A stretch of 64,000 nt of DNA from Escherichia coli. Lineage in GTDB: Bacteria > Pseudomonadota > Gammaproteobacteria > Enterobacterales > Enterobacteriaceae. Under the pieces are notes generated by a model that saw only the letters and a program-made list of their open reading frames with translations, searched no databases and was not told where the DNA came from. Positions within the stretch are counted from its first letter, which is position 1. Each line of letters opens with the position of its first letter. The translations under genes were made by a program, and so were the position numbers. This document shows positions 18,098-34,025 of the stretch, one piece after another. The stretch is taken from NCBI RefSeq assembly GCF_011045215.1, contig NZ_CP049201.1, one strand, 5' to 3'.

Positions 18098-20785
18098 ATG
18101 GAAAATTCGGCAGCTCTGTTACGTCGTCTTAATCATTACTGTGCCCGTGCACTGGAAGGCGCAGCCTCCCTTTGCCAGACCCGGGCCCATGCAGAAATCA
18201 CCCCGGAGCACTGGTTACTGAAACTGCTGGAGCAGGGGGAAGGAGACCTTACCGTGCTGGGCCGGCGTTATGGCTGGGATATGGACGCGATATGGCAGTC
18301 GCTGCTCGGCTGGCTGGATAACCAGCCCCGTAGCGTACGCAGTCGCCCGCAGCTTGCGCCGTCCCTGAATGCCCTGCTGAAACAGGCCTGGATGGTGGCC
18401 TCATTACAGGGGGAAGAACATATCCGCAGCGTGCATCTGCTGGGTGCCCTGACGGAACATCCGCACCTGGTTCGCTGTGACGGGCTGTGGCCCCTGCTGA
18501 CACTGAGTCAGAGTCAGTTGCAGCGTCTGTCCCCGCTGCTGGATGCGCAGTCTGATGAGTGTCCGGAGAGATTACAGGATGCAGAGCCTGTGCTGCCTCA
18601 GGGAGACAATGTGACCTTTATCGGGCGCCCCGTCGGTGCGGATACGGCGGGTATACCGTCAGGTGACCTGCCGCCTGTGTTACAGAGTGCGCTGGATAAA
18701 TTCACCCGGGACATCACGGCCAGTGCGAGAGAGGGTAAAATTGACCCGGTATCGGGGCGCGATACGGAAATCCGCCAGATGGTGGATATTCTCTCCCGCC
18801 GCCGCAAGAATAACCCGATTCTGGTGGGGGACCCCGGTGTGGGGAAAACGGCTCTGGTGGAAGGGCTCGCCCTGCGTATTGTGGAAGGTAACGTACCGGA
18901 ATCACTCAGACCCGTCACCCTGCGCACCCTTGACCTCGGCCTGCTGCAGGCCGGTGCCGGCGTGAAGGGGGAATTTGAACAGCGCCTGAAAAACGTGATT
19001 GATGCCGTGCAGCAGTCACCGGCTCCTGTTCTGTTGTTTATAGATGAAGCCCATACCCTTATCGGGGCCGGTAATCAGGCTGGCGGCGCGGATGCGGCGA
19101 ACCTGCTGAAGCCTGCGCTGGCGCGGGGTGAACTGCGCACCATTGCCGCCACCACCTGGTCTGAGTACAAACAATACCTGGAACGTGACGCGGCCCTGGA
19201 GCGGCGTTTTCAGATGGTCAGAGTGGACGAGCCGGATGATGAGACGGCCTGTCTGATGCTACGCTCCCTGAAATCCCGTTATGCGGAACATCATAACGTG
19301 CATATCACCGATGAGGCGGTACGTGCTGCCGTCACACTGTCGCGCCGTTATCTGACAGAACGTCAGTTACCGGACAAGGCCGTTGACCTGCTTGATACCG
19401 CTGCTGCCCGTGTGCGTATGAGCCTCGACACGGTGCCGGAACAGCTGACCCGTATCCGTTCACAGCTCGCCTCCCTCGGTATGGAAAAACAGGCACTGCT
19501 GGAAGATATTGCCGTTGGTCATCAGAATCACGGCGAACGCCTGTCTGCCATTGAGCAGGAAGAGAATGTGCTGATGACAGCACGTGATGACCTGGAGCAG
19601 CAGTACGCCCGGGAGTGCGAACTCACCGGTGAGTTACTTGAAAGCCGCAGCGATATTTCCCGCCAGAGTGAGACACATCACCTGCAGCAGGCACTGCACG
19701 ACATTCAGCAGAATCAGCCCCTGCTCAGTGTGGATGTTGATGTACGCACCGTGGCCGGTGTGGTCGCGGACTGGACCGGGGTGCCGTTATCCTCACTGAT
19801 GAAGGACGAACAGACGGAACTGCTGCATCTGGAAAAGGATATCGGCAGACGGGTGGTCGGACAGGACGTGGCACTGGAATCCATTGCACAGCGTCTGCGT
19901 GCGGCGAAAACGGGTCTGACATCCGGTAACGGCCCCCAGGGGGTGTTCCTGCTGGTTGGCCCCAGTGGTGTGGGAAAAACTGAAACGGCACTGGCACTGG
20001 CAGACGCGATGTACGGCGGCGAAAAATCACTGATTACCATCAATCTGTCGGAATATCAGGAGCCCCATACGGTTTCCCAGCTTAAGGGCTCACCGCCCGG
20101 GTACGTGGGATACGGTCAGGGGGGGATTCTGACGGAGGCTGTGCGTAAACGCCCTTACAGCGTGGTGCTGCTGGATGAAGTGGAAAAGGCCCACCGGGAT
20201 GTGCTGAATCTGTTTTATCAGGTATTTGACCGGGGCTTTATGCGCGACGGCGAGGGGCGTGAAATTGACTTCCGTAATACGGTCATACTGATGACCTCCA
20301 ACCTGGGCAGTGACCTTCTGATGCAGCAACTGAGCGAAAAGCCGGAGACAACGGAATCGGAGCTGCATGAGCTTATCCGTCCACTGCTGCGCGACCACTT
20401 CCAGCCTGCCCTGCTGGCTCGCTTTCAGACCGTGATTTACCGTCCGCTGACACAGTCTGCCATGCGCATCATTGTGGAGATGAAGCTTGCACAGGTCTGT
20501 GAACGCCTGCACTGCCATTATGGACTGAGTACATCGGTTGATGAACGTGTGTACGATGCCCTGACATCAGCCTGCCTGCTGCCGGATACGGGCGCCCGGA
20601 ATGTGGAGAGTCTGCTGAACCAGCAACTGCTGCCGGTACTGAGCCGGCAGTTGCTCAGCTATCTTGCTGCCAGACAGCATCCGACGTACCTGTCTCTGAC
20701 GTGGAATGATGAGGATGGTATTGTGATAGCGTTTGATGGAATCAATAGCGATTATCCGCAGGAAAGCATATATGGACAGTGCTAA
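18098..20785 (+). CDS. clpV: T6SS AAA+ ATPase ClpV (TssH)
   Basis: Two AAA+ modules with Walker A GDPGVGKT and GPSGVGKT, Walker B LLFIDEAH and VVLLDEVEKA, ClpB-like N-domain. Confidence 0.93.
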   Translation: MENSAALLRRLNHYCARALEGAASLCQTRAHAEITPEHWLLKLLEQGEGDLTVLGRRYGWDMDAIWQSLLGWLDNQPRSVRSRPQLAPSLNALLKQAWMVASLQGEEHIRSVHLLGALTEHPHLVRCDGLWPLLTLSQSQLQRLSPLLDAQSDECPERLQDAEPVLPQGDNVTFIGRPVGADTAGIPSGDLPPVLQSALDKFTRDITASAREGKIDPVSGRDTEIRQMVDILSRRRKNNPILVGDPGVGKTALVEGLALRIVEGNVPESLRPVTLRTLDLGLLQAGAGVKGEFEQRLKNVIDAVQQSPAPVLLFIDEAHTLIGAGNQAGGADAANLLKPALARGELRTIAATTWSEYKQYLERDAALERRFQMVRVDEPDDETACLMLRSLKSRYAEHHNVHITDEAVRAAVTLSRRYLTERQLPDKAVDLLDTAAARVRMSLDTVPEQLTRIRSQLASLGMEKQALLEDIAVGHQNHGERLSAIEQEENVLMTARDDLEQQYARECELTGELLESRSDISRQSETHHLQQALHDIQQNQPLLSVDVDVRTVAGVVADWTGVPLSSLMKDEQTELLHLEKDIGRRVVGQDVALESIAQRLRAAKTGLTSGNGPQGVFLLVGPSGVGKTETALALADAMYGGEKSLITINLSEYQEPHTVSQLKGSPPGYVGYGQGGILTEAVRKRPYSVVLLDEVEKAHRDVLNLFYQVFDRGFMRDGEGREIDFRNTVILMTSNLGSDLLMQQLSEKPETTESELHELIRPLLRDHFQPALLARFQTVIYRPLTQSAMRIIVEMKLAQVCERLHCHYGLSTSVDERVYDALTSACLLPDTGARNVESLLNQQLLPVLSRQLLSYLAARQHPTYLSLTWNDEDGIVIAFDGINSDYPQESIYGQC

Positions 20786-21413
20786 AGAAATTGCCCGGGA
20801 TATGCTGGAGTCCGTAAATATTAATGGGGATGGGTTTCTGGGGGCCGTCGGGAAGGGGCTCATATCTTTGCCAGTCAGTCTCGGTTATATGGGATATGAT
20901 TTTACAGATACCGGGCATAGGCGGGAAAACCAGAATGACAAATTCAGAATGGCCAGACTGGTAGAAAAAGGCATTTTCAGCCGTGATATTATTGGGAAAA
21001 TTATCAGTATTTGTCTTGAAGACTTTGTATCCCGGATCAATATGGAAAAAATAGGCTCCATTGTGAAGAACGTTTCAGGAGATCTGGCAGGTAGAATGGC
21101 ATTTGCTGAATTGACCGGGGTTAAACTGGGAGAGGCTCTGGTATCCAGAGGGCTGGCTGCTTTTTTTGCAGGGAGTTTTGCCGGGTTGTTATTATCTGTT
21201 GGCGCAGAGACATCGCGTGCGATTTACACATCCCGTTTTCTGAAAGACAGAAATCCGGTGTTGCATGATAAGCTGAAAGCTCAGGGGGATTTGGATCTTT
21301 TGTACTTCCTTGTTGAAGATATTGTGCGCCCGTTTGAACGAGCCTGTATTGTCGCAGACCGAAATTCGGCTGAGTTTGACCGGATATGCGAATATTTTTT
21401 CGGTGGTTTATGA
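20774..21413 (+). CDS. Hypothetical protein with a Gly/Ala-rich hydrophobic segment (putative membrane-active effector)
   Basis: 213 aa from MDSAKEIARD; segment GLAAFFAGSFAGLLLSVGAET; located between clpV and vgrG; function not recognised. Confidence 0.45.
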
Positions 21414-21637
21414 AGATAAAAAGAACATTACTTATAATGCTTTCCCGATTTATCCGTGGCGCAGGTATGGGGTTAGGTGCGTCGGGTATTGTATTTACAG
21501 TCTGGTTCTTTTTTCTCTCATCTTCTGAATTTAAATATCTGTGGGGAGGGCTCTCTGTTGCGTTATTTTTTGTCGGTTATCTGATGTATCGATTTGCATA
21601 TGCATATATTTACGATGAATGGGATGATTATCAGTAA
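21410..21637 (+). CDS. Small two-TM membrane protein (putative cognate immunity)
   Basis: 75 aa, ATG overlaps the upstream stop (ATGA); two hydrophobic helices GMGLGASGIVFTVWFFFL and LSVALFFVGYLMY. Confidence 0.4.
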   Translation: MKIKRTLLIMLSRFIRGAGMGLGASGIVFTVWFFFLSSSEFKYLWGGLSVALFFVGYLMYRFAYAYIYDEWDDYQ

Positions 21638-21715
21638 TTCTCTCTGAAAATAAAGCTTAACGGTCATCATTATATAATTGCAGTTCAATACCGGTACAGA
21701 CATGGAGTTAACAAT

Positions 21716-24238
21716 ATGAGTCTGACAGATACACTTTCAAAAACTATCTCTGTTTCCCTGAATCGTTACCATTTAATTATTCCCTCCTGCCCGTCACCAC
21801 TGGATGTTGAGCATTTCAGCGGCAGGGAGGAGATGAGTCAGACCTATTATTACATCATCAATTTTACCAGTACTGACAACGACCTGGATGCCGGGCTGCT
21901 GCTGCGTAAATCAGCCACATTTACAATGGGTACGGGAGGGCTTAAGGAGCAGGTGAGCCAGAAAGTAGTACATGGTGTCATTACAGATTTTCGCCGTATA
22001 TCGGGCTCCGCCGACCAGGCAAAATACCAGGTGATACTGGAACCATTTATTAAACTACTGGACAGGCAGCATCGTTCTCACCGATTTTTCGTTAACAAAT
22101 CGGTGCCGGAGGTGGTGACAGAGGTTCTCCAGGAGCACGGTCTGAAAGGCTGGGAGTTTGAGTTCCGTCTCAAAAAAACGTATCCGAAGCGTGAACAGAT
22201 TAACCAGTATCAGGAAAGTGACCTGCAATTTATTCAGCGTTTGCTGGCTGAAGTGGGGATTTTTTATTTTTTCACCCTGCAACCGGACACGCAGACGGAA
22301 GTGGTGCATTTTGGTGACAGCCAGGCAGCGCTGACGTTTGATAAGACGCTGGCGATAAACAGTCCGTCCGGAATGAATGATAACAGAGCGGATTCAGTGT
22401 GGGGGCTGAATGTGACGCACAATGTGGCAGAGGCTAGTGTCACCACAAAGGCTTATAACCATCGTGAAGCACAATATCTGTTGCAGTCCGCCCCGGCAGA
22501 CATGACGCATGGTGATGGTGACGGAATTAACTATGGTGAGGTGTACCACTACCATTTCCGTCATCTGGAACGGGGGGATAAAATCGACCCGGTGCCGGAG
22601 ACGGCCAATTTTTATGCCCGCCTTGGTCATGAACGCTATCTGGCGGAGCAGGTACGGATAACCGGTAACAGTACAGACGCCACGCTGGCACCTGCTCAGG
22701 TTCTGACTATCACCGACAGTCTTCCGCCGACGTTGCCTGCGCTGCTGCGCAATCCGGTGTTGCTTACCTGTGTCGGTTTTTCTGCAAGTCGCAAGGATGC
22801 CCTGCAGGTTGTACTGAAGGGCGTTCCTTACAGTGAAGTTATCTGCTGGCGTCCTCCTTTACTGCCCCGTCCGAAAGTTACCGGTACCATGACGGCCCGT
22901 GTGACCAGTGCAAAAGAAGGGGATATCTACGCCTGGCAGGATGCATCAGGTATGTACCGGGTGAAATTTGATGCTGACCGTGATGATAAAAATCCAGGAC
23001 AGGAAAGTATGCCGGTACGTCTGGCCAAACCCTACAGTGGTGATGCTTATGGTTTTCATTTTCCGCTGATTCAGGGAACGGAAGTGGCCATTGCTTTTGA
23101 GGAAGGTGATCCGGATCGTCCCTATATTGCGCATGCCCTGCATGATTCACGTCATGTTGATCACGTTACCGATAAGAACGGTACGCGCAATGTTATCCGT
23201 ACGCCAGCAAATAACAAATTGCGAATGGAGGATAAGCGCGGCGAGGAGCATATCAAGCTCAGTACCGAGTATGGCGGTAAGACACAACTTAATCTTGGCC
23301 ATAACGTTGATGAGGAGCGGGTGGTTAGAGGAGAAGGTGCAGAGTTGCGCACTGATGATTGGGTGGCAATTCGGGGGGGGAAAGGGATTTTATTAAGTGC
23401 CGACGCTCAACCAAATGCTGATGGTGTAATGCTTGATATGCATAAAGCTATACAGCAGTTGGAACATGCTCTTGCTCTTGCAAAAAGCCTCGGCAAAGCA
23501 GCTGAGACAGCAAAAGCAACTTCGGCAGATTCAGATAGCCAGTCTATTTTGAAAAGTGCGCTGTCCGGGTTGCAAAAACCAGGGATATTAGCACATTCAC
23601 CTATGGGAATTGGTGTGGTAACTCCAGAAGCAGTACGGATTGCTTCTGGAAATCAGAGTGTAGGAATAGTTTCTGGTCGTAATACGGATATTACTGCAGC
23701 TCAGTCAGTAACTGTTGCGGCATCGAATTCTGTCAGCCTATTTGCGCAAAGTGCGGGGATGCAACTTTTTGCAGGGCAGGGCAAAGTGGATGTGCAGGCT
23801 CAGGGAGATGCGCTGAATCTCCAGGCACTAAAGGACGTCACAGTTACTAGTAATCGTGGTAGTGTAACGTTAAGCGCTAGTAAGGAGTTAACTCTTGTTT
23901 GTAATGGTGCTTACATCAAGATCAGTGGCGGAAATATCGAACTTGGATGTCCAGGTAATATTCTGCTTAAATCTGCGAATGTGCAAAAAATGAGAGCGGC
24001 AAACTTAAATCTATCTCCTCAGGTGTTGCCTAAAGGATTCAAGGGAGGATTTACAATAACTAATCAGGATACGGGGGAAGTGATGCCGTACATCCTTTAT
24101 AAGATAACTACCGCAGAAGGTGATGTTTATTCAGGTACAACAGATAAACTTGGCAATACCATGCCAATTTATACAGCGTCGCCATCATTAATGAAAATTG
24201 AGTTTCCTCTAAGCAGTGAACAAGGAGGGGCATTATGA
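21716..24238 (+). CDS. vgrG: T6SS spike protein VgrG (TssI) with C-terminal extension
   Basis: 840 aa, longer than a minimal VgrG; gp27/gp5-like N-terminal region then repeat-rich beta-prism region and an extra C-terminal tail of about 100 aa. Confidence 0.9.
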   Translation: MSLTDTLSKTISVSLNRYHLIIPSCPSPLDVEHFSGREEMSQTYYYIINFTSTDNDLDAGLLLRKSATFTMGTGGLKEQVSQKVVHGVITDFRRISGSADQAKYQVILEPFIKLLDRQHRSHRFFVNKSVPEVVTEVLQEHGLKGWEFEFRLKKTYPKREQINQYQESDLQFIQRLLAEVGIFYFFTLQPDTQTEVVHFGDSQAALTFDKTLAINSPSGMNDNRADSVWGLNVTHNVAEASVTTKAYNHREAQYLLQSAPADMTHGDGDGINYGEVYHYHFRHLERGDKIDPVPETANFYARLGHERYLAEQVRITGNSTDATLAPAQVLTITDSLPPTLPALLRNPVLLTCVGFSASRKDALQVVLKGVPYSEVICWRPPLLPRPKVTGTMTARVTSAKEGDIYAWQDASGMYRVKFDADRDDKNPGQESMPVRLAKPYSGDAYGFHFPLIQGTEVAIAFEEGDPDRPYIAHALHDSRHVDHVTDKNGTRNVIRTPANNKLRMEDKRGEEHIKLSTEYGGKTQLNLGHNVDEERVVRGEGAELRTDDWVAIRGGKGILLSADAQPNADGVMLDMHKAIQQLEHALALAKSLGKAAETAKATSADSDSQSILKSALSGLQKPGILAHSPMGIGVVTPEAVRIASGNQSVGIVSGRNTDITAAQSVTVAASNSVSLFAQSAGMQLFAGQGKVDVQAQGDALNLQALKDVTVTSNRGSVTLSASKELTLVCNGAYIKISGGNIELGCPGNILLKSANVQKMRAANLNLSPQVLPKGFKGGFTITNQDTGEVMPYILYKITTAEGDVYSGTTDKLGNTMPIYTASPSLMKIEFPLSSEQGGAL

Positions 24239-26145
24239 GTGAGTCAAAAACATCTGCTGTAGGAACATTCAGTAAAGCCCATGCTCCTGCGCAAAAGAAA
24301 TGCTGGATTGAAATTCAGCTGGTTGATGAGAATGATAACGCTGTAGCTAATATGCCATGGCGAGGGGAGAATGAAGCTACTCGTGATAAAGTTATTGAGC
24401 CTTATAGCGGAGTTACTGATTTAGATGGTATTTTGAGGATCGATGATTTGCTTCACCCAGATCTTACTCTTTTTGTTGAAGCTCAACCACTTGTTGACGA
24501 AATGGAGCATAGACCTTTAAGTATAGAGAGAACATGTTCCTATTCGATGAAAAATTCACCAGTAACTGTTGATAAGCGGACCAATAATATTTGTTATTAT
24601 GTAGTTGTCGGTCAATTGTGCGATAAAGCTCCAAGTATACCTGGTTGGAATAGTAAAGAATTACCTGCCTTTCATTTTCCCGATCGTGATTTTTCAGGAC
24701 TAACTATTTCAAATGCGTACTTTAATTCGAGAGTTATAGTAAAAGTATGTCCATTTAGAGCATGGAATTTACTTCTTCATCATGCAAAGGATTACTCTAT
24801 TGTAAATGCGTTTAATTTGGGGCTTTTAGCTGAATTTGTTTATTCTGACAAAGAAAAAATCCTGTCCTTTTTTAATGAGCAGTGTCAAGATTTATCTAAA
24901 GTTCCTAGTATGCTCTATGAAACCATTTCTGTTGATGTGCCGTTTAGAGAACGTTATGTAAATCCAGTATTTCTTGATACTACAGAAGGTGATTTTGGAG
25001 AAGGGGGGACCCAGCTTTTCTTCGTCAGCAATTTGACTAAGCTATTAGTCGGCTGGAGAGGTACTGAGCCAGATAAACTAGCAGATCTTATTACTGATGG
25101 GGCATTTAGGCCGGTGCCATGTCCAGATATAGTGCCATCAGGTCATTGTCACAAAGGTTTTTTAGATGCATTTAATTTAGTTGGAAAAAAATTCAGGGAC
25201 CAACTCAAACAAATTCAGAGTTTGTCGAGTGGCCGTGAATTATTTATTGCAGGACATAGCTTAGGCGGTGCATTAGCTCTAATTCATGCTGCTGTGTTGC
25301 GTGATTATCAACCAATAATCTATACATATGGAATGCCGCGAGTATTTACGGCATCGGCTATTAATAAAATTAAAAATATTTCTCACTATAGACACGTTAA
25401 TGATTCAGATTCAGTAACAAGCATTCCACCGGAGTTAGAGTTAGATAATAAACTCTATGATCTTTGGGGACCTTACGGTGTTGTCTATGGATTTGTTGGT
25501 TCTGTTTTGGCTATGGGAATTCAAGGCGCAGGAATAAAGTTTGGTGATCCTTATTGGCACCATGGTAGCACTGTCTGCTTTTTTAAGGTTGAGCAGTCTA
25601 TTGTTAAGCGTTTAAAAAGAATTATGCCGCTTATAGGCATGGATGTTAAAAAACCATATATATCAATAAGGGAGATCTCATTTGACAAATGTAAGCTATA
25701 TCTTGTTCCAGATCTTAATGAGAAAATGTTTTGCGCTACAGCAGAGGAGCAAAATAATTTTGTGAAAAGTTTGTCCCCTGAAAGTTTAAGATGCTATTTT
25801 CCTAAAAATAGTAATCCAGAACTTGATTCTTGGACAAATCCAATAAATCATTCCATGTCAAACAAATACATGCCTTTTATTAATAATGAGCTGATTGAGC
25901 TAACAGATCCTGAGCGACCAATGGAAAGAAAACTGAATAGGAAAAAATTTTCAATTGCTGTTGATAATGCAGCGAAGTTAACAGAAAGCACTTCGAAGCA
26001 TGAGCTGGAAAGAAATAAGAACTTTTTATTGTTGCAAGATATGTTGCCAAAAACATTAGAAATATCAAAGTCAGAAAATAACTGGGTGAATGCATTGATT
26101 AGATTTAAAAATAGTGCAAAGGAAGAGTATGAGAATATTAATTAA
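24235..26145 (+). CDS. Putative T6SS phospholipase/lipase effector (class-3 lipase-like, GHSLGG nucleophile motif)
   Basis: 636 aa; start overlaps the vgrG stop; GHSLGGALALIHAA at about 25252..25290 is a GxSxG alpha/beta-hydrolase nucleophile elbow; AT-rich relative to the core genes. Confidence 0.75.
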   Translation: MSESKTSAVGTFSKAHAPAQKKCWIEIQLVDENDNAVANMPWRGENEATRDKVIEPYSGVTDLDGILRIDDLLHPDLTLFVEAQPLVDEMEHRPLSIERTCSYSMKNSPVTVDKRTNNICYYVVVGQLCDKAPSIPGWNSKELPAFHFPDRDFSGLTISNAYFNSRVIVKVCPFRAWNLLLHHAKDYSIVNAFNLGLLAEFVYSDKEKILSFFNEQCQDLSKVPSMLYETISVDVPFRERYVNPVFLDTTEGDFGEGGTQLFFVSNLTKLLVGWRGTEPDKLADLITDGAFRPVPCPDIVPSGHCHKGFLDAFNLVGKKFRDQLKQIQSLSSGRELFIAGHSLGGALALIHAAVLRDYQPIIYTYGMPRVFTASAINKIKNISHYRHVNDSDSVTSIPPELELDNKLYDLWGPYGVVYGFVGSVLAMGIQGAGIKFGDPYWHHGSTVCFFKVEQSIVKRLKRIMPLIGMDVKKPYISIREISFDKCKLYLVPDLNEKMFCATAEEQNNFVKSLSPESLRCYFPKNSNPELDSWTNPINHSMSNKYMPFINNELIELTDPERPMERKLNRKKFSIAVDNAAKLTESTSKHELERNKNFLLLQDMLPKTLEISKSENNWVNALIRFKNSAKEEYENIN

Positions 26146-26890
26146 GAACATGATGTACATCTTTTCTTTTTTTTTGTTAGGGTGTGATAAAAATGAGTCA
26201 TTGAATCCTCCATCCAATGGTGAAATGGTTTCTGTAATTGCAAAGATGCCAGCGGGCAGTAAAATATTGCCATTGGAAATTATGTATCGTTCAACCACTT
26301 GCTTGAAGAGTCGTAAAGATTCAAATGGAGGTATAGTAAAAGAACCAGGATATTATTTTGTCAAGAAAGAATTCAATTCTGTATCAGACGATAATATATT
26401 TAATCTGAAGATTCCACGTGATGGTGGAGGGCAGTGTAACTGGGAGTTAAGCAACATAACGTTAGGGTTCTATTTAAAAGAACTTCCTTCAGGTAAAGAT
26501 GAAAAGAGTGAGAATATACCAATTAAAGAAATTATTGTGTTTGATGATAATTCACCTCAGCGGCTAAGTGGAACATACGAGATTATTAATGGAGATGTTA
26601 CACTGAAAGAGAATTACTTTCCTTTAATTACAAAGCGCAGGAATAGCAATACCTTATTGGAATATTCCATTGTCAGGTCTTCACCAGATGTGATTTATAA
26701 ATCAACATCGGCAAAAAAAGTTATTTTTGAACCAAGGATTCATTTTTCAAAAGTTTTACGCGCGACAGAACCGACAGGGCAAAAAGTCGGAGTGTATATG
26801 TCGGTGTTGTATCCTGATGGAACTATCGAGAATGGGCCATATTTCCCTAATTACAAAAAACTTCAGTTCCTTGAGAGAGGTAATGATTGA
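26129..26890 (+). CDS. Lipoprotein, putative immunity protein for the lipase effector
   Basis: Signal peptide with lipobox MRILIKNMMYIFSFFLLGC; overlaps the effector 3-prime end; same low GC. Confidence 0.6.
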   Translation: MRILIKNMMYIFSFFLLGCDKNESLNPPSNGEMVSVIAKMPAGSKILPLEIMYRSTTCLKSRKDSNGGIVKEPGYYFVKKEFNSVSDDNIFNLKIPRDGGGQCNWELSNITLGFYLKELPSGKDEKSENIPIKEIIVFDDNSPQRLSGTYEIINGDVTLKENYFPLITKRRNSNTLLEYSIVRSSPDVIYKSTSAKKVIFEPRIHFSKVLRATEPTGQKVGVYMSVLYPDGTIENGPYFPNYKKLQFLERGND

Positions 26891-27493
26891 TTATTTATAA
26901 TTAATTTCTGTATTTTTAGATTGAATGTTTTATGTATCTGTGAATGCGTGGTGTTCCGAATCGGATTTTGCGTTATTATTTCTAATGTCGTAATTAAAGA
27001 GAAAGAGTTTAGCTAAAACGATTGTTTTCATTCTAAACATAGAGTAAATATGAAGTGTTTTTTATCAAGTCTACGAACTCTCAGTATTATGTTTTTTGTG
27101 CCGATTATATTTTTCATCTTTCAGTACGAATGCTGGAGTAAGTGATAGTTTTGATTTGCTTATAATTGGGGGATTGTTTCTCATTATCTTGGTTAGCAAA
27201 TCCATTTATTATAGAAGTAATCAAGATAAATAATTTATTATATTTATAATTGTCCCTGGTGTCATTTTTATTGTTCATTTCTTTCTTAGAAGTTAAAGGC
27301 ATTATTGTGAAGGTTGGGAAGGGAAAATGTTAATAATGTTTTATGGCTTGGGATATTGGATGTGAGAGTCATGCTTCATTTAGCATGATGTTAACTCAAA
27401 ATATCGACATTCATTAGCGTAAAAATTAAAATAATGAATATCTCTGATTAATTGTTGTCTTAATTTATATCGTCTTATAAAGTTGAGGTGTGG

Positions 27494-27760
27494 ATGTCAA
27501 GTAGTTTTGTTTTGCTGGGTGATAAAACAACTCATGGTGGCGAAGTGATCTCAGCTTCTTCAACCATGATTGTCGATGGTAAAAAAGTAGCTCTTGTCGG
27601 AGATATGGTTAGTTGTCCTGTTTCCGGACATGGTACTAATCCTATTGTGGAGGGCTCTCCTGAATGGATATCTGATGGAAGAGCTGTTGTGATTGATGGA
27701 TGTAAATGTCTGTGTGGGTGTAAGGTTATATCCAGTGCACCGGAATGTGCAATAGGATAA
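27494..27760 (+). CDS. PAAR-domain spike-tip protein
   Basis: About 88 aa, Gly/Cys-rich with PAAR-like motifs (VSCPVSGHG, GCKCLCGCK); GAGG RBS before the ATG. Confidence 0.8.
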   Translation: MSSSFVLLGDKTTHGGEVISASSTMIVDGKKVALVGDMVSCPVSGHGTNPIVEGSPEWISDGRAVVIDGCKCLCGCKVISSAPECAIG

Positions 27761-27763
27761 AAC

Positions 27764-28912
27764 ATGGGATGGAGCAGAACAAAATCATTATCAACAGAAT
27801 TACCTCATAAACCATCAATGATGTTGTGGTTTATGACAGGGGCATTTATGGCTGTTGTTGGTGCTCTGTTGTTTATTATCCGGGCATCAGGATATGTGAA
27901 AGCATTAAATAATTTCAGTATCTGGTGGCTTGCATTGACTCCTCCGGGGAGCTGGTTTTTCCTGTTTTGCCTGCGACACTGGCAGTGGAGCAACCAGATG
28001 GATGAACATTTGTTTCTTAAAAAAGAGGGGGAGTATGCTCAGAAACAGTGGGAATCCTGGGCCGAAAGGTATCTTGTTATTACTGCCAGTTGTGTTTATT
28101 TGCCTGATAAAATAACGGTAGCTACTCTTTGTGATGAATTGCCTCTGCAGTATGGCCTTGTAAAGAAAATAGATTATCTTTCTGACAGTGGGCATAAGGT
28201 TGAAGCCTCTTTACGTGTCTTGCTTAGGGAGATAACGGATAAATTTTGTCAGTTACCTGCCGCTCTCCCTGTAAATGTGACGCTGATAACCGATCAGCCT
28301 GATTCTGAAATCAGATCTGCTTTTGTTTCTGCATGGGAAGCGTTATTTCCCCAACGCGTCGTTCCTGACAATATTGAGGTTACTCCCGACTTTTCCATGG
28401 GGTGGGGTGATGAGCGTCTGAAACAACCAGTGCTGACTGTGGATTTGATACTGGTAATACAGCTTAATGGGGGAAATGCATACTCTGACGGACTGGCTGC
28501 ACTTTTGTTGACCAGCGATGATGTTGCGCAAAAATATAATCTGCCGCATTCAGCCCGTCTGCTACGCCCGATGTCGCTGGATATCAACAAGTTTAATGAT
28601 GAATTCACACTTTTCCTTGAAACCCAGACAGCTGCCTGTCGTACCGCTCGTGTACTGGGGGACTGTTATCACTGGGAAAAGATTGCTGCACCGCTGATGA
28701 CTATTGGAAACCAGTATGGTGCCGGATGGGAACCGTCCGGACGTATGTTACTGGAAAAATGGTGCGGTATCCCGGGACCTGCTGCTCCGTGGCTGCTTAC
28801 TGCTCTGGCAGCCGATCTGGTCTGTCTTGGTAATGATTCTCTCCTGACTTTATTCTCATCCGGAGAAGAACATTTTATCAGTACTGTTACATCAGGAAAC
28901 CAGAATGAATAA
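27764..28912 (+). CDS. T6SS-associated inner-membrane protein of unknown function
   Basis: 382 aa with two N-terminal TM helices; 3 bp after PAAR and overlapping the tssM start. Confidence 0.55.
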   Translation: MGWSRTKSLSTELPHKPSMMLWFMTGAFMAVVGALLFIIRASGYVKALNNFSIWWLALTPPGSWFFLFCLRHWQWSNQMDEHLFLKKEGEYAQKQWESWAERYLVITASCVYLPDKITVATLCDELPLQYGLVKKIDYLSDSGHKVEASLRVLLREITDKFCQLPAALPVNVTLITDQPDSEIRSAFVSAWEALFPQRVVPDNIEVTPDFSMGWGDERLKQPVLTVDLILVIQLNGGNAYSDGLAALLLTSDDVAQKYNLPHSARLLRPMSLDINKFNDEFTLFLETQTAACRTARVLGDCYHWEKIAAPLMTIGNQYGAGWEPSGRMLLEKWCGIPGPAAPWLLTALAADLVCLGNDSLLTLFSSGEEHFISTVTSGNQNE

Positions 28913-31900
28913 ACTGGCCTGTCTGTCTGGTCGCTTTGGGCGACCGGGGATTGTATTTATTGGTGTGGCTGCGCTCTGGTGGCTGATAACCCGATATGGA
29001 GCATATCTGGGGGCAGAAACACGCCGGGATCAAATACTACTGCTGATATTGCTGAGTCTGGGGTTGCTCTTTGTCTGTTACCTGCCTGTGATGAAAAAAT
29101 ATGTTCAGGAACTGACATATCGACGCAGGGCCCGTAAGGAGCAAAGGTTACCTGACGATGAAGAGCGACTGGCTCAGACGCCACCGCGCTATGTTACTGT
29201 TCAGGATATTCGTCATACTCTGCGGCGCCAGTATGGCAGATTCTGGGGACGTAAGATACGCATTCTGTTGATAACAGGTACCGCCTCTGAGGTTGAGTTG
29301 TTGACCCCGGGCCTGACAGAACAGTTCTGGCAGGAAGAGCAGGGGACATTGCTTCTCTGGGGAGGAGACCCCTCGCAGCCGGAAAACGCAGACTGGCTGG
29401 CTGCGTTACGCCGTCTGCGTTACCGGCCTGCTGATGGCATTGTCTGGGTAACTTCCGGACTGAGTGAAACATTATCCGCACCACTTACAGAAGATGCCCT
29501 TGACAGGGTTTCCCGTGCAGTCAGTTCATGTTGTGAGCGCCTTGGCTGGCGTCTGCCGCTGTATGTCTGGTCACTGCAGGAGAGTCCGGATGAGCGTGGG
29601 CGTATTACTCAGCCCGTGGGATGCCTTCTGCCGGCAGAATGTCGTTCTGACAAACTGAAAGCACAACTACAGGCCATGCTCCCCGGGCTTGTTACTCAGG
29701 GGATACAGCAGATATGCAGTGCCCCTCGGTATTATTTTTTGTTGTCGCTGGCAGAGCGATTCAGACGAAATATTGATGCTGTGGTGGAGCCATTATCCGT
29801 ATTACTCCGTTCATACCGTCAGTTGTTGCTGGCGGGTATTGTTTTCAGTCCGGCAACTGTCGGTGGTGAACGAAGTGTCAGACATCGCTGGCGAATGGAT
29901 AACCGCTGGGAGGCGTTGCCGGAGACAGTGCAGCAATTACCTGTCCGGCTACAGCCTTCCCGCACAGGTCATAACTGGCGCAGAAGCCTGACTGTTATGG
30001 CGGTCATACTGATGATGGCTCAGGGAACAGGAATGGTGGTTTCCTTTCTGGCAAACCGGAGTCTGGTTGCTGAAGTACAGGAACAGATTCGTCCAGTTCA
30101 GAACCAGCAACAGTCTCTTACAGAACGTCTGCAGGCGTTGCTGAATCTGCAGAAATCCCTGGCCCGCCTTCAGTATCGTGAGGAGCACGAGGCGCCATGG
30201 TACCTGCGGGCCGGTATGAATCAGAATGCAGACCTGCTCGCGGTCGTAATGCCTCTTTATGCACAAAATGCACATCTTTTACTGCGTGATGCCGCTGCTG
30301 CTCATCTTGAGCAGCAGCTCAGAATATTTATTCGTCTTCCTCCGGACAGCCCGCAGCGGGGGAAAATGGCAAAAGCCGCCCGTGACCAGCTCAGACTGTA
30401 TCTGATGCTGGCGCAACCGCAACATATGGAGTCCGCCTGGTTCAGTCGTACGCTCATGCGGGAATGGCCACAGCGTGACGGTGTGAGTGCCGGTTTCTGG
30501 CAGGCTAACGGCCCGACGCTGCTGGCGTATTATGCCTCCGGGCTTATTACCCATCCTCAGTGGAAGCTGACAGTTGATGAAGAGCTGGTCAGCCAGAGCA
30601 GGACTCTGCTGCTTCGCCATATGGGAACACAGAACAGCGATGCCATGCTGTATCAGAAAATGCTGGCACGGGTGGCACATCAGTTTGCGGATATGCGTCT
30701 GACGGATATGACCGGTGATACTGATGTCTCCCGCCTCTTTTTCACCGATGAAGTGGTCCCCGGTATGTTTACCCGCCAGGCCTGGGAAGAGGCCGTATTG
30801 CCGGCCATAGATACCGTGATTAATGAGCGTCGTGAAGAAATGGACTGGGTACTGACTGATGGCAGGCAGAAGACACCGTCACCGGTATCGCCGGAAGCAC
30901 TCAGACAGCGCCTGAAAACGCGCTATTTTGCTGATTTTGGTAATGCCTGGCTGAATTTTCTGAACAGTCTGCAGTTACGCCGGGCTCAGACGCTGTCTGA
31001 TGTGACAGAGCAGCTGACGCTGATGGCTGATGTGCGCCAGTCCCCCCTGGTTGCACTGATGAATACGCTGGCGGTTCAGGGGCGTACTGGTCAGCCCCGG
31101 GAAGCAGTTACTGATTCACTGGTTAAATCTGCCAGAAACCTGCTTTCACAGGAAAAACAGCCGGTGACAGCACAGGAAAGCCGGCTTCACGGTCCTCTGG
31201 CGACGACTTTCGGGCCGGTGCTTGCACTGATGGATAATCAGAACAACAGCGCGGATATGCTGAATCTGCAGACGTATCTGATCCGGATTACACAGGTTCG
31301 TCTGCGTCTGCAACAGATTGCCGGCTCTTCTGACCCGCAGGCCATGATGCAGATGCTGGCACAGACAGTATTGCAGGGGAAATCGGTTGATTTAACTGAT
31401 ACCCGGGATTACGGCAGCCTGGCCGCTGCCGGACTCGGACAGGAGTGGTATGGCTTCGGACAGACGGTCTTTGTTCGCCCGATGGAGCAGGCGTGGCAGC
31501 AGGTTCTTACACCCGCGGCAGAAAGTCTGAATACCCGGTGGCGTACTGCGGTGGTGGATGGCTGGAATAATGCATTTTCCGGGCGTTATCCGTTTAAAAA
31601 TGTCAGCAGCGATGCTTCACTTCCCCTGCTGGCAAAATACCTGAATACGGACACGGGACGTATTGCCCGTTTTCTGCAGAATAACCTGAGTGGTGTGTTG
31701 CGCAGGGAAGGCAATCGCTGGGTACCGGATACCATTAATACCCGGGGGCTGACATTCAACCCTGCGTTTCTGAAAGCCATCAATACCCTGAGTGAAATAG
31801 CAGATGTGGCGTTCACCACAGGTAACGCGGGGCTGCATTTTGAGCTGCGACCGGGAACTGCTGCCGGTGTGATGCAGACGACGCTGATAACCGATAATCA

Positions 31901-33892: not shown

Positions 33893-34025
33893 GATGTCTG
33901 AATTATATTCATGTGTAATCTGATTAATGAAATCCGGCCTGCAGTTCAGTTCGGACGATTGTTTGAAGTATGGTTGAAGTCAGAGCGCGAGTCTCCGGAA
34001 CAGTTAGCTTTATTCTGAGAAGATA

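Follow-up and report, generated by a model that had tools for sequence, protein, structure and literature searches.

In the type VI secretion system 1 (T6SS-1) clusters of Escherichia coli, the slot between vgrG and the PAAR gene carries Tle1 in enteroaggregative E. coli (EAEC), Tle3 in adherent-invasive and uropathogenic E. coli (AIEC/UPEC) and Tle4 in avian pathogenic E. coli (APEC) (PMC9860674), and in EAEC Tle1 is bound directly by the C-terminal TTR domain of VgrG1 with help from the beta-helix (PMC9860674). The family Tle2 comprises class-3 lipases and is typified by Vibrio cholerae TseL (PMC9846239). The Photorhabdus protein Pdl1 shows lipase/haemolytic activity, and its effects are repressed in a dose-dependent manner by Orf54 and Orf53, signal-peptide proteins encoded by linked genes (PMC3355079). 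Here we describe a 64,000-nucleotide stretch of an E. coli genome (assembly GCF_011045215.1, contig NZ_CP049201.1; hereafter the window), in which a T6SS-1 cluster of the EAEC Sci-1 type carries, between vgrG and PAAR, a class-3 lipase gene followed by the gene for a candidate immunity lipoprotein. The architecture and the effector family are already known; what is new is this lipase/immunity pair as cargo of an E. coli T6SS-1, and in the literature searched we found no paper describing Tle2- or Pdl-type cargo in that system. We consider it likely that the locus is an antibacterial T6SS-1 effector-immunity cassette, and we infer binding to VgrG, a periplasmic site of action, a phospholipid substrate and protection by the lipoprotein from homology and context. 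The most useful points are a chimeric VgrG and an immunity family that had carried no annotation.

Gene structure of the locus

The locus comprises the following features, in nucleotides (nt) of the window and amino acids (aa):

21716-24238, plus strand: vgrG, an open-reading frame (ORF) of 840 aa encoding the T6SS spike: gp27/gp5 core, DUF2345, predicted TTR-like C-terminal tail
24235-26145, plus strand: effector lipase gene, 636 aa, Pfam Lipase_3, class-3 lipase of Pdl/Tle2 type
26129-26890, plus strand: immunity candidate gene, a 253 aa lipoprotein, with signal and lipobox encoded at 26129-26185 (Cys19)
26891-27487, no strand: non-coding spacer of ~600 nt with 28% GC, the right-hand part of the cassette
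27494-27760, plus strand: PAAR gene, 88 aa, NF033420 PAAR domain (RefSeq annotation), the conserved right flank

The ORF list placed the three cargo-region genes at the positions given in the initial annotation, which had also claimed that vgrG ends inside the start of the effector gene and that the effector and immunity genes are much more AT-rich than the T6SS core. Both claims held: the vgrG stop TGA and the effector ATG overlap as ATGA (4 nt, 24235-24238), with GGAGGGG 6-12 nt upstream of that ATG, and GC content falls to 36.3% in the effector gene, 34.9% in the immunity gene and 28.0% in the spacer, against 55.4% and 53.6% in the T6SS core to the left and right. The third gene bore out its overlap with the effector gene and its lipobox, but its start was corrected. 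Its longest ORF begins at GTG 26114 (258 aa, 32-nt overlap with the lipase gene), but both its homologues and RefSeq, in the annotation of a genome 99.5% identical, favour ATG 26129, with AGGA upstream, from which the overlap counts 17 nt. Clusters resembling T6SS-1 in Klebsiella aerogenes and Cedecea neteri hold the same cassette with the same 4-nt and 17-nt overlaps. As the matches of the trio reach E-values of 1e-20 or better, and its order and overlaps recur in other genera, it is not a chance arrangement. No terminator-like site was found on the plus strand from vgrG to PAAR; the three genes would be co-transcribed and are probably translationally coupled.

Six complete E. coli chromosomes match the segment at 99.5%, namely the Shiga toxin-producing E. 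coli (STEC) strains STEC313, STEC306, STEC307, STEC308 and STEC719 and a Canadian food isolate. In STEC313 the gene order is tssB, tssC, tssK, tssL, an OmpA-family gene, hcp, tssH (clpV), a hypothetical gene and vgrG, followed by the lipase (in RefSeq the effector gene is already named 'lipase family protein'), a hypothetical gene, PAAR, a further hypothetical gene, tssM, tssA, tssF, tssG, tssJ and tssE. All T6SS core genes of the cluster share one orientation, its long ORFs are intact in the window, and there is no DUF4123-type adaptor among its unassigned ORFs.

A chimeric VgrG at the edge of an exchangeable cassette

The VgrG protein has the Pfam domains Phage_GPD (aa 37-335, E 6e-52), Phage_base_V (403-475, E 8e-7), T6SS_Vgr (495-596) and DUF2345 (615-758, E 6e-45), followed by a tail of ~80 aa, and it scores 331 bits against the NCBIfam model TIGR01646. 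Residues 1-831 align without a break to EAEC VgrG1 (PDB 6SJL, 841 aa), and from this alignment the tail is expected to adopt a TTR-like fold.

As a reference for the origin of this gene we used an E. coli genome in which the same cluster carries tle1-tli1-tli1 (locus L002). Nucleotide identity to this Tle1-carrying allele is ~100% up to ~23215, drops to 83% at 23216-23365 and is 53-66% from there to the end of vgrG, which delimits one further feature:

23216-24238, plus strand: swapped 3' part of vgrG (aa ~501-840), marked by the drop in identity against the Tle1 allele; includes DUF2345 (23558-23989) and the TTR-like tail (23990-24235)

The protein identities, segment by segment, run in opposite directions against the E. 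coli Tle1 allele and against K. aerogenes and Cedecea, which carry the same lipase:

VgrG aa 1-500: 99% to the Tle1 allele, 69% to K. aerogenes/Cedecea
VgrG aa 501-560: 85% to the Tle1 allele, 97% to K. aerogenes/Cedecea
VgrG aa 561-614: 56% to the Tle1 allele, 81-83% to K. aerogenes/Cedecea
VgrG aa 615-758: 58% to the Tle1 allele, 89-92% to K. aerogenes/Cedecea
VgrG aa 759-840 (tail): 38% to the Tle1 allele, 87% to K. aerogenes/Cedecea

VgrG is therefore a chimera whose tail co-segregates with the cargo across genera. It provides unusually clean natural evidence that cargo specificity is determined by the C-terminal ~340 residues, and that cargo is exchanged by recombination inside vgrG. Because the segment identities switch from the Tle1 allele to the carriers of the same lipase in K. 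aerogenes and Cedecea, the VgrG tail, the lipase, the immunity gene and the AT-rich spacer are, judged from sequence, one exchangeable cassette of ~4.3 kb. Similarity to the Tle1-type allele is lost across the cargo genes and the spacer and is back at 98% from 27504; identity to the other E. coli T6SS-1 alleles likewise resumes only at 27504, which puts the right recombination boundary ~10 nt inside the PAAR gene. We propose that recombination within vgrG and at the beginning of the PAAR gene brought the cassette into E. coli, and it is these breakpoints that demonstrate the swappable cargo module suspected in the initial annotation.

Compared with STEC313, with which the window is collinear only within 9708-43552, a tract of ~9 kb around the cassette (20708-29707) is 99.0-100% identical, whilst identity elsewhere in the shared cluster is mostly 96-98.6%. 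That this tract is more alike than its surroundings suggests a recent spread of the cassette and some of its flank within E. coli, which would have taken place by homologous recombination via the conserved flanks.

The spacer (26891-27487) shares 69% nucleotide identity with the K. aerogenes spacer. It contains no convincing ORF and none with similarity to a family, no relic of an immunity gene (tblastn with four immunity proteins) and no Rfam match, the sole sub-threshold match, to P10, falling inside the PAAR gene; promoter-like sites are no commoner in it than in shuffled sequence. One possibility is that it serves PAAR-tssM as promoter or regulatory sequence.

Class-3 lipase effector with an intact predicted triad

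The effector matches Pfam Lipase_3 (PF01764) at aa 272-400 with an E-value of 1.4e-20; within this match lies its single GxSxG, GHSLG at aa 340-344, the nucleophile elbow (GHSLGG) that the initial annotation had picked out in the 636-aa protein. The codons of the predicted active site were checked:

25258-25260, plus strand: predicted nucleophile Ser342 (GHSLGG)
25408-25410, plus strand: Asp392
25558-25560, plus strand: His442
25063-25065, plus strand: Thr277 of the oxyanion region

In an alignment of 30 homologues (39-88% identity), G340-H-S342-L-G-G345, D392 and H442 are invariant, and Thr277 of the WRGT oxyanion region is nearly so; Asp392 aligns to the catalytic Asp position of fungal lipases. 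The earlier description of the protein as class-3-lipase-like was thus confirmed by the Lipase_3 match and the intact, invariant Ser342/Asp392/His442 triad. Full-length homologues occur in Enterobacterales and Pseudomonas. PHROGs gave a match to a generic esterase/lipase family only, and the N-terminal sequence contains no Sec signal.

The relatives with solved structures that sequence searches returned are exclusively fungal class-3 lipases, feruloyl esterases and plant phospholipase A1 (PLA1), at E 6e-9 from the single sequence and 3e-20 from the family profile. The AlphaFold2 model of the effector (predicted local distance difference test score, pLDDT, 79; predicted template-modelling score, pTM, 0.82) led Foldseek to the same group, with fungal class-3 lipases best and plant PLA1 also among the best. 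In this model the N-terminal part has a disordered yet conserved tip and a confident beta-sandwich (aa ~22-81), the core is predicted to be an alpha/beta-hydrolase (aa ~185-445), and the C-terminal part forms a long beta-hairpin and a helical domain (aa 445-627). Residues 393-436, between Asp392 and His442, are a family-specific hydrophobic insertion modelled with low confidence.

This insertion lends itself to another reading of the substrate, as do the best structural relatives, which besides PLA1 include mono-/diacylglycerol lipases and feruloyl esterases: the protein could be a T6SS-delivered esterase whose target is not bulk phospholipid, and which would instead attack lipoprotein or lipid A acyl chains, di-/triacylglycerol or another envelope ester. 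The characterised members of Tle1-4, including Tle2 (TseL), however have PLA1 and/or PLA2 activity (PMC9860674), and a periplasmic lipoprotein as immunity partner fits a membrane-lipid target. We regard such a substrate as improbable and prefer membrane glycerophospholipids.

A candidate lipoprotein immunity family linked to the lipase

The N-terminus of the immunity protein, MRILIKNMMYIFSFFLLG-C19, is a lipoprotein signal with the lipobox LLGC. The protein has no Pfam, NCBIfam, PHROG or PADLOC match and BLASTP found no similarity to E. coli Tli1; a single-sequence search returned 19 relatives only, whilst a later profile search recovered more than 269 members. A lipobox is present in 35 of the 38 members sampled, and Cys58, GGGxCxW with Cys103, and YPxG are invariant in the family. 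An Erwinia sp. homologue (P0132), 75% identical, has the lipobox Cys replaced by Tyr (LFLGYD) and may not be lipidated. The conserved pair Cys58/Cys103 and the lipoprotein signal fit a periplasmic protein. Asp following the lipidated Cys predicts retention at the inner membrane (the +2 rule), and in the subclade of this protein that residue is Asp, which suggests that the immunity lipoprotein sits on the inner membrane. Its structural model (pLDDT 86) is all-beta save for one short C-terminal helix.

This large family is a constant companion of these lipases: in gene neighbourhoods drawn in part from seven single-protein look-ups, the pair recurs in Klebsiella, Cedecea, Enterobacter, Citrobacter, Pseudomonas and Photorhabdus, as well as in another E. 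coli allele. Genes at the corresponding place in Photorhabdus were shown by experiment to antagonise the lipase (PMC3355079). Even distant lipase homologues in Enterobacter, Citrobacter and Pseudomonas adjoin genes for lipoproteins of 250-260 aa that are 27-29% identical to the immunity protein, and the neighbour of the Photorhabdus lipase matches the immunity profile with a probability of 99.3%. In matched pairs, identity of immunity protein versus lipase is 79% vs 88%, 42% vs 62% and 36% vs 42%; the immunity protein thus diverges faster than the lipase, as is usual for effector-immunity pairs. The arrangement of VgrG with cargo, lipase and lipoprotein immunity, which was originally read from the letters of the DNA, is hence supported on every testable point, by the alignment to 6SJL, the intact triad and the conserved lipoprotein partner.

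Assignment to a Tle family

The initial annotation had left the Tle family to be settled by profile searches. The present analysis excluded Tle1, 3, 4, 5 and 6 and narrowed the effector to Tle2 in a broad sense, Pdl subfamily. Tle1 was rejected as no DUF2235 match (Pfam, E up to 10) and no NCBIfam match (E up to 0.01) was obtained, and BLASTP of the effector against E. coli Tle1 gave nothing significant. Tle3 and Tle4 were rejected for want of a DUF3274 Pfam match and of any Tle3 (8BOZ) or Tle4 effector chain among the matches listed or the top 50 folds. Tle5 (phospholipase D) was rejected as the effector has neither an HxKxxxxD motif nor a PLD domain, and Tle6 as the partner of the effector is all-beta with no Ank Pfam match, against the ankyrin-repeat immunity of Tle6. 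No Tle1, Tle3, Tle4 or Tle6 structure appears in the top 50 Foldseek matches of the effector.

The link to Tle2 came from an exhaustive profile search, which found a 646-aa lipase of TseL type in Vibrio sinensis. Its gene follows a DUF4123 adaptor gene and precedes a gene for a 232-aa protein and a PAAR gene, an order that we take to resemble V. cholerae tap-1/tseL/tsiV1. Residues 24-444 of the effector, comprising the N-terminal domain and the catalytic core, align to this protein at 23% identity (E 3e-27), and the C-terminal ~190 aa lie outside the alignment. Asp392 aligns to V. sinensis Asp427, and V. sinensis Ser373, Asp427 and His472 agree with the published Asp425 of TseL. Full-length relatives are 'lipase family proteins' of enterobacteria and Pseudomonas and entries named 'Pdl protein' (template-modelling (TM) score ~0.8): the effector model gives TM scores of 0.78-0.80 against AlphaFold 'Pdl protein' entries and a Photorhabdus asymbiotica entry, and a Photorhabdus khanii member aligns over aa 22-635 at 34% identity (E 2e-111). 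The best label for the effector would therefore be Tle2, the class-3-lipase group taken broadly, and within it the Pdl subfamily, its likeness to TseL being read via the V. sinensis lipase.

Membership of the same family as the Photorhabdus Pdl proteins brings with it a different reading, in which the lipase acts on its producer like Pdl1 and mainly remodels or permeabilises the cell's own envelope for the release of large proteins or toxins, the lipoprotein acting as a dose-dependent brake and the T6SS linkage being regulatory. Expressed in E. coli, Pdl1 raised Tc toxin release and protein leakage, which Orf54/Orf53 repressed (PMC3355079), and five of the six complete E. coli carriers are named STEC strains. 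The Pdl1 phenotypes, however, came from over-expression and are what any toxic phospholipase would be expected to give, the ATGA coupling to a vgrG with a co-varying tail is the signature of loaded cargo, and no large-toxin locus is linked to the cassette in this T6SS cluster. We hold a producer-acting lipase to be very unlikely.

Another possibility follows Tle6 of Enterobacter cloacae: the lipase would stay inactive unless chaperoned or activated by cytosolic immunity protein, which would be translated from an internal start codon. Both loci are of one type (Enterobacteriaceae T6SS-1), the catalytic Ser is at position 342 here and 341 there (PMC11470151), and the immunity protein has Met33 and Met40 after its lipobox Cys. 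That protein, however, is all-beta and not an ankyrin repeat, Pdl1 is active without a partner (PMC3355079), and the Tle6 structure 9CYS was absent from the 60 profile matches listed at E up to 10 and from the top 50 Foldseek matches, although its presence in the libraries searched is unconfirmed. Of all the alternatives we give this the least credence. The coupling to vgrG, the non-ankyrin immunity protein and the activity of Pdl1 alone together weaken both the producer-acting and the Tle6-like readings.

Proposed mode of action

We return to the antibacterial effector-immunity cassette, which would work as follows. The VgrG trimer would carry the lipase directly on its C-terminal extension (DUF2345 and TTR-like tail) with no separate adaptor, the disordered, conserved N-terminus and the beta-sandwich of the lipase being the likely docking surface for VgrG. 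Sheath contraction would then drive the loaded spike into the periplasm of a neighbouring Gram-negative cell, where the Ser342-Asp392-His442 lipase would hydrolyse glycerophospholipids of the membrane, its most likely activity being that of a phospholipase A1, and so permeabilise the cell, whilst in sister cells the 253-aa periplasmic lipoprotein would bind and block the incoming lipase and thereby protect them.

Several points weigh against this account. The immunity model has no fold like that of any solved chain, and the 232-aa neighbour of the V. sinensis lipase is not detectably related to the immunity family (hhalign against the profile, probability 0.9%). Some lipase-family members are orphans or stand beside other kinds of vgrG or DUF4123 genes, so direct loading on a TTR tail is not family-wide. 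The substrate could be another ester, given that class-3 lipases include diacylglycerol lipases and feruloyl esterases. Pdl1, Orf54 and Orf53 are the only experimental support for antagonism in this lipase family, and in that study Pdl1 acted from inside its producer, a poor fit with a toxin that works strictly in the periplasm. Finally, the gap between tssA and tssF in the window is 133 nt (33893-34025), where STEC313 has a 693-bp 'type VI secretion protein' gene; the window lacks this accessory T6SS gene, so the competence of the system to fire is presumed.

A doubtful, more general idea is that the N-terminal module common to this lipase superfamily (the disordered tip and the beta-sandwich, aa ~1-180) might be a universal loading handle, which would engage a matched VgrG TTR tail in Enterobacteriaceae T6SS-1 and DUF4123 adaptors in Vibrio, Pseudomonas and possibly Photorhabdus. 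If true, the toxin family would have switched between adaptor-dependent and adaptor-free loading via recombination events in which VgrG tail and cargo are exchanged jointly. In a more remote variant, the lipase might also act on its producer like Pdl1 and aid toxin release in STEC hosts.

Distribution and neighbouring alleles

The lipase-immunity pair is present in 6 of 5,426 complete E. coli genomes, five of the six being named STEC strains, and beyond these six a sensitive blastn search of all complete E. coli genomes yielded neither a diverged nor an orphan copy of the effector or immunity gene. With the pair this rare and no orphan immunity copy detectable in the DNA, one would expect almost every E. 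coli to be susceptible, provided that the lipase is antibacterial.

The second E. coli allele (33F4, L012 6447-11616) comprises a vgrG of 848 aa, a lipase of 624 aa, a lipoprotein of 251 aa and PAAR, then further small genes and a second PAAR. Its lipase is 42% and its immunity protein 36% identical to the pair in the window, and it occurs in three near-identical, apparently clonal calf/farm isolates, in a more divergent T6SS-1 cluster. In the T6SS-1 allele of E. coli APEC20/16 (L011 6433-13758), vgrG is frameshifted and the cargo slot contains a 775-aa 'ATPase' and two formylglycine-generating-enzyme (FGE)-family genes, with no lipase; FGE-sulfatase-domain genes also stand after the lipase module in Citrobacter (L006) and before PAAR in Cedecea (L009). 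Elsewhere, lipase-lipoprotein pairs of Enterobacter (L004/L005 6001-8827) are orphans far from any vgrG, and in Pseudomonas citronellolis (L003 1436-5365) the lipase is flanked left and right by immunity homologues.

Upstream of vgrG, the clpV-vgrG gap (20772-21637, 43% GC) contains two overlapping ORFs, one of 213 aa with a hydrophobic stretch rich in glycine and one of 83 aa, the latter without RefSeq annotation and, by eye, with the look of two transmembrane segments; neither ORF has a Pfam, NCBIfam, PHROG, PADLOC or PDB match. In K. aerogenes the same slot is occupied by a Tlde1-domain protein and a 75-aa ORF, whilst two other E. coli alleles have a small 'Rhs'-named protein and a 'T6SS immunity periplasmic lipoprotein' there, and from these contents the 213-aa and 83-aa ORFs may be a second effector-immunity pair.

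Comparison with known systems

The nearest systems by location are EAEC VgrG1-Tle1-Tli1 (6SJL) and AIEC VgrG-Tle3-Tli3 (8BOZ), which share with the window the cluster type, the vgrG-PAAR slot, a lipoprotein immunity and the lack of a separate adaptor; EAEC VgrG1 further has the length and the gp27/gp5, DUF2345 and TTR tail architecture of the VgrG described here. The cargo differs: neither the effector nor the immunity protein shows sequence similarity to Tle1/Tli1, there is no DUF2235 or DUF3274, and the VgrG tails are only 38% identical. Tli1 and Tli3 are outer-membrane proteins (PMC9860674), whereas the immunity protein of the window is predicted, from its +2 Asp, at the inner membrane. A class-3 (Pdl/Tle2-type) lipase with an immunity protein outside Pfam thus adds a further cargo type to Tle1, Tle3 and Tle4 at the vgrG-PAAR slot.

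By effector domain, the closest are the TseL (Tle2) type of Vibrio and Tle2 of Pseudomonas aeruginosa PAK, which are of similar length and likewise have a class-3 lipase domain with GHSLG. TseL-type proteins and the effector also share a catalytic Asp within the motif HYRHVN-x-x-D-x-V and, where His442 lies, a histidine pair (HHG). The Vibrio TseL and PAK Tle2 types, however, load via a DUF4123 adaptor (PMC9846239), whereas the VgrG of the window has a matched TTR tail; the C-terminal ~190 aa of the effector differ from the TseL type, and the 232-aa neighbour in Vibrio is not homologous to the immunity family.

Enterobacter cloacae Tle/Tli (Tle6, 9CYS) and Serratia Slp resemble the locus in having a fungal-lipase-like alpha/beta hydrolase with a similar domain layout and a lipoprotein immunity in an Enterobacteriaceae T6SS-1. 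The immunity protein of Tle6, however, is an ankyrin-repeat protein needed for the methylglyoxal crosslink that activates the lipase (PMC11470151), whereas that of the window is all-beta.

Over its full length the lipase belongs to the family of Photorhabdus Pdl1 (via the P. khanii member), with a downstream lipoprotein in the immunity family, a likeness to Pdl1/Orf54 of strain W14 that is read from P. khanii and AlphaFold relatives. The gene for Pdl1 belongs to a Tc toxin island, and the protein was read as a secretion enhancer (PMC3355079), whereas the gene described here is vgrG-coupled cargo in a core T6SS cluster. The finding ties the 2012 observations on Photorhabdus Pdl1/Orf54 to the effector-immunity framework of the T6SS.

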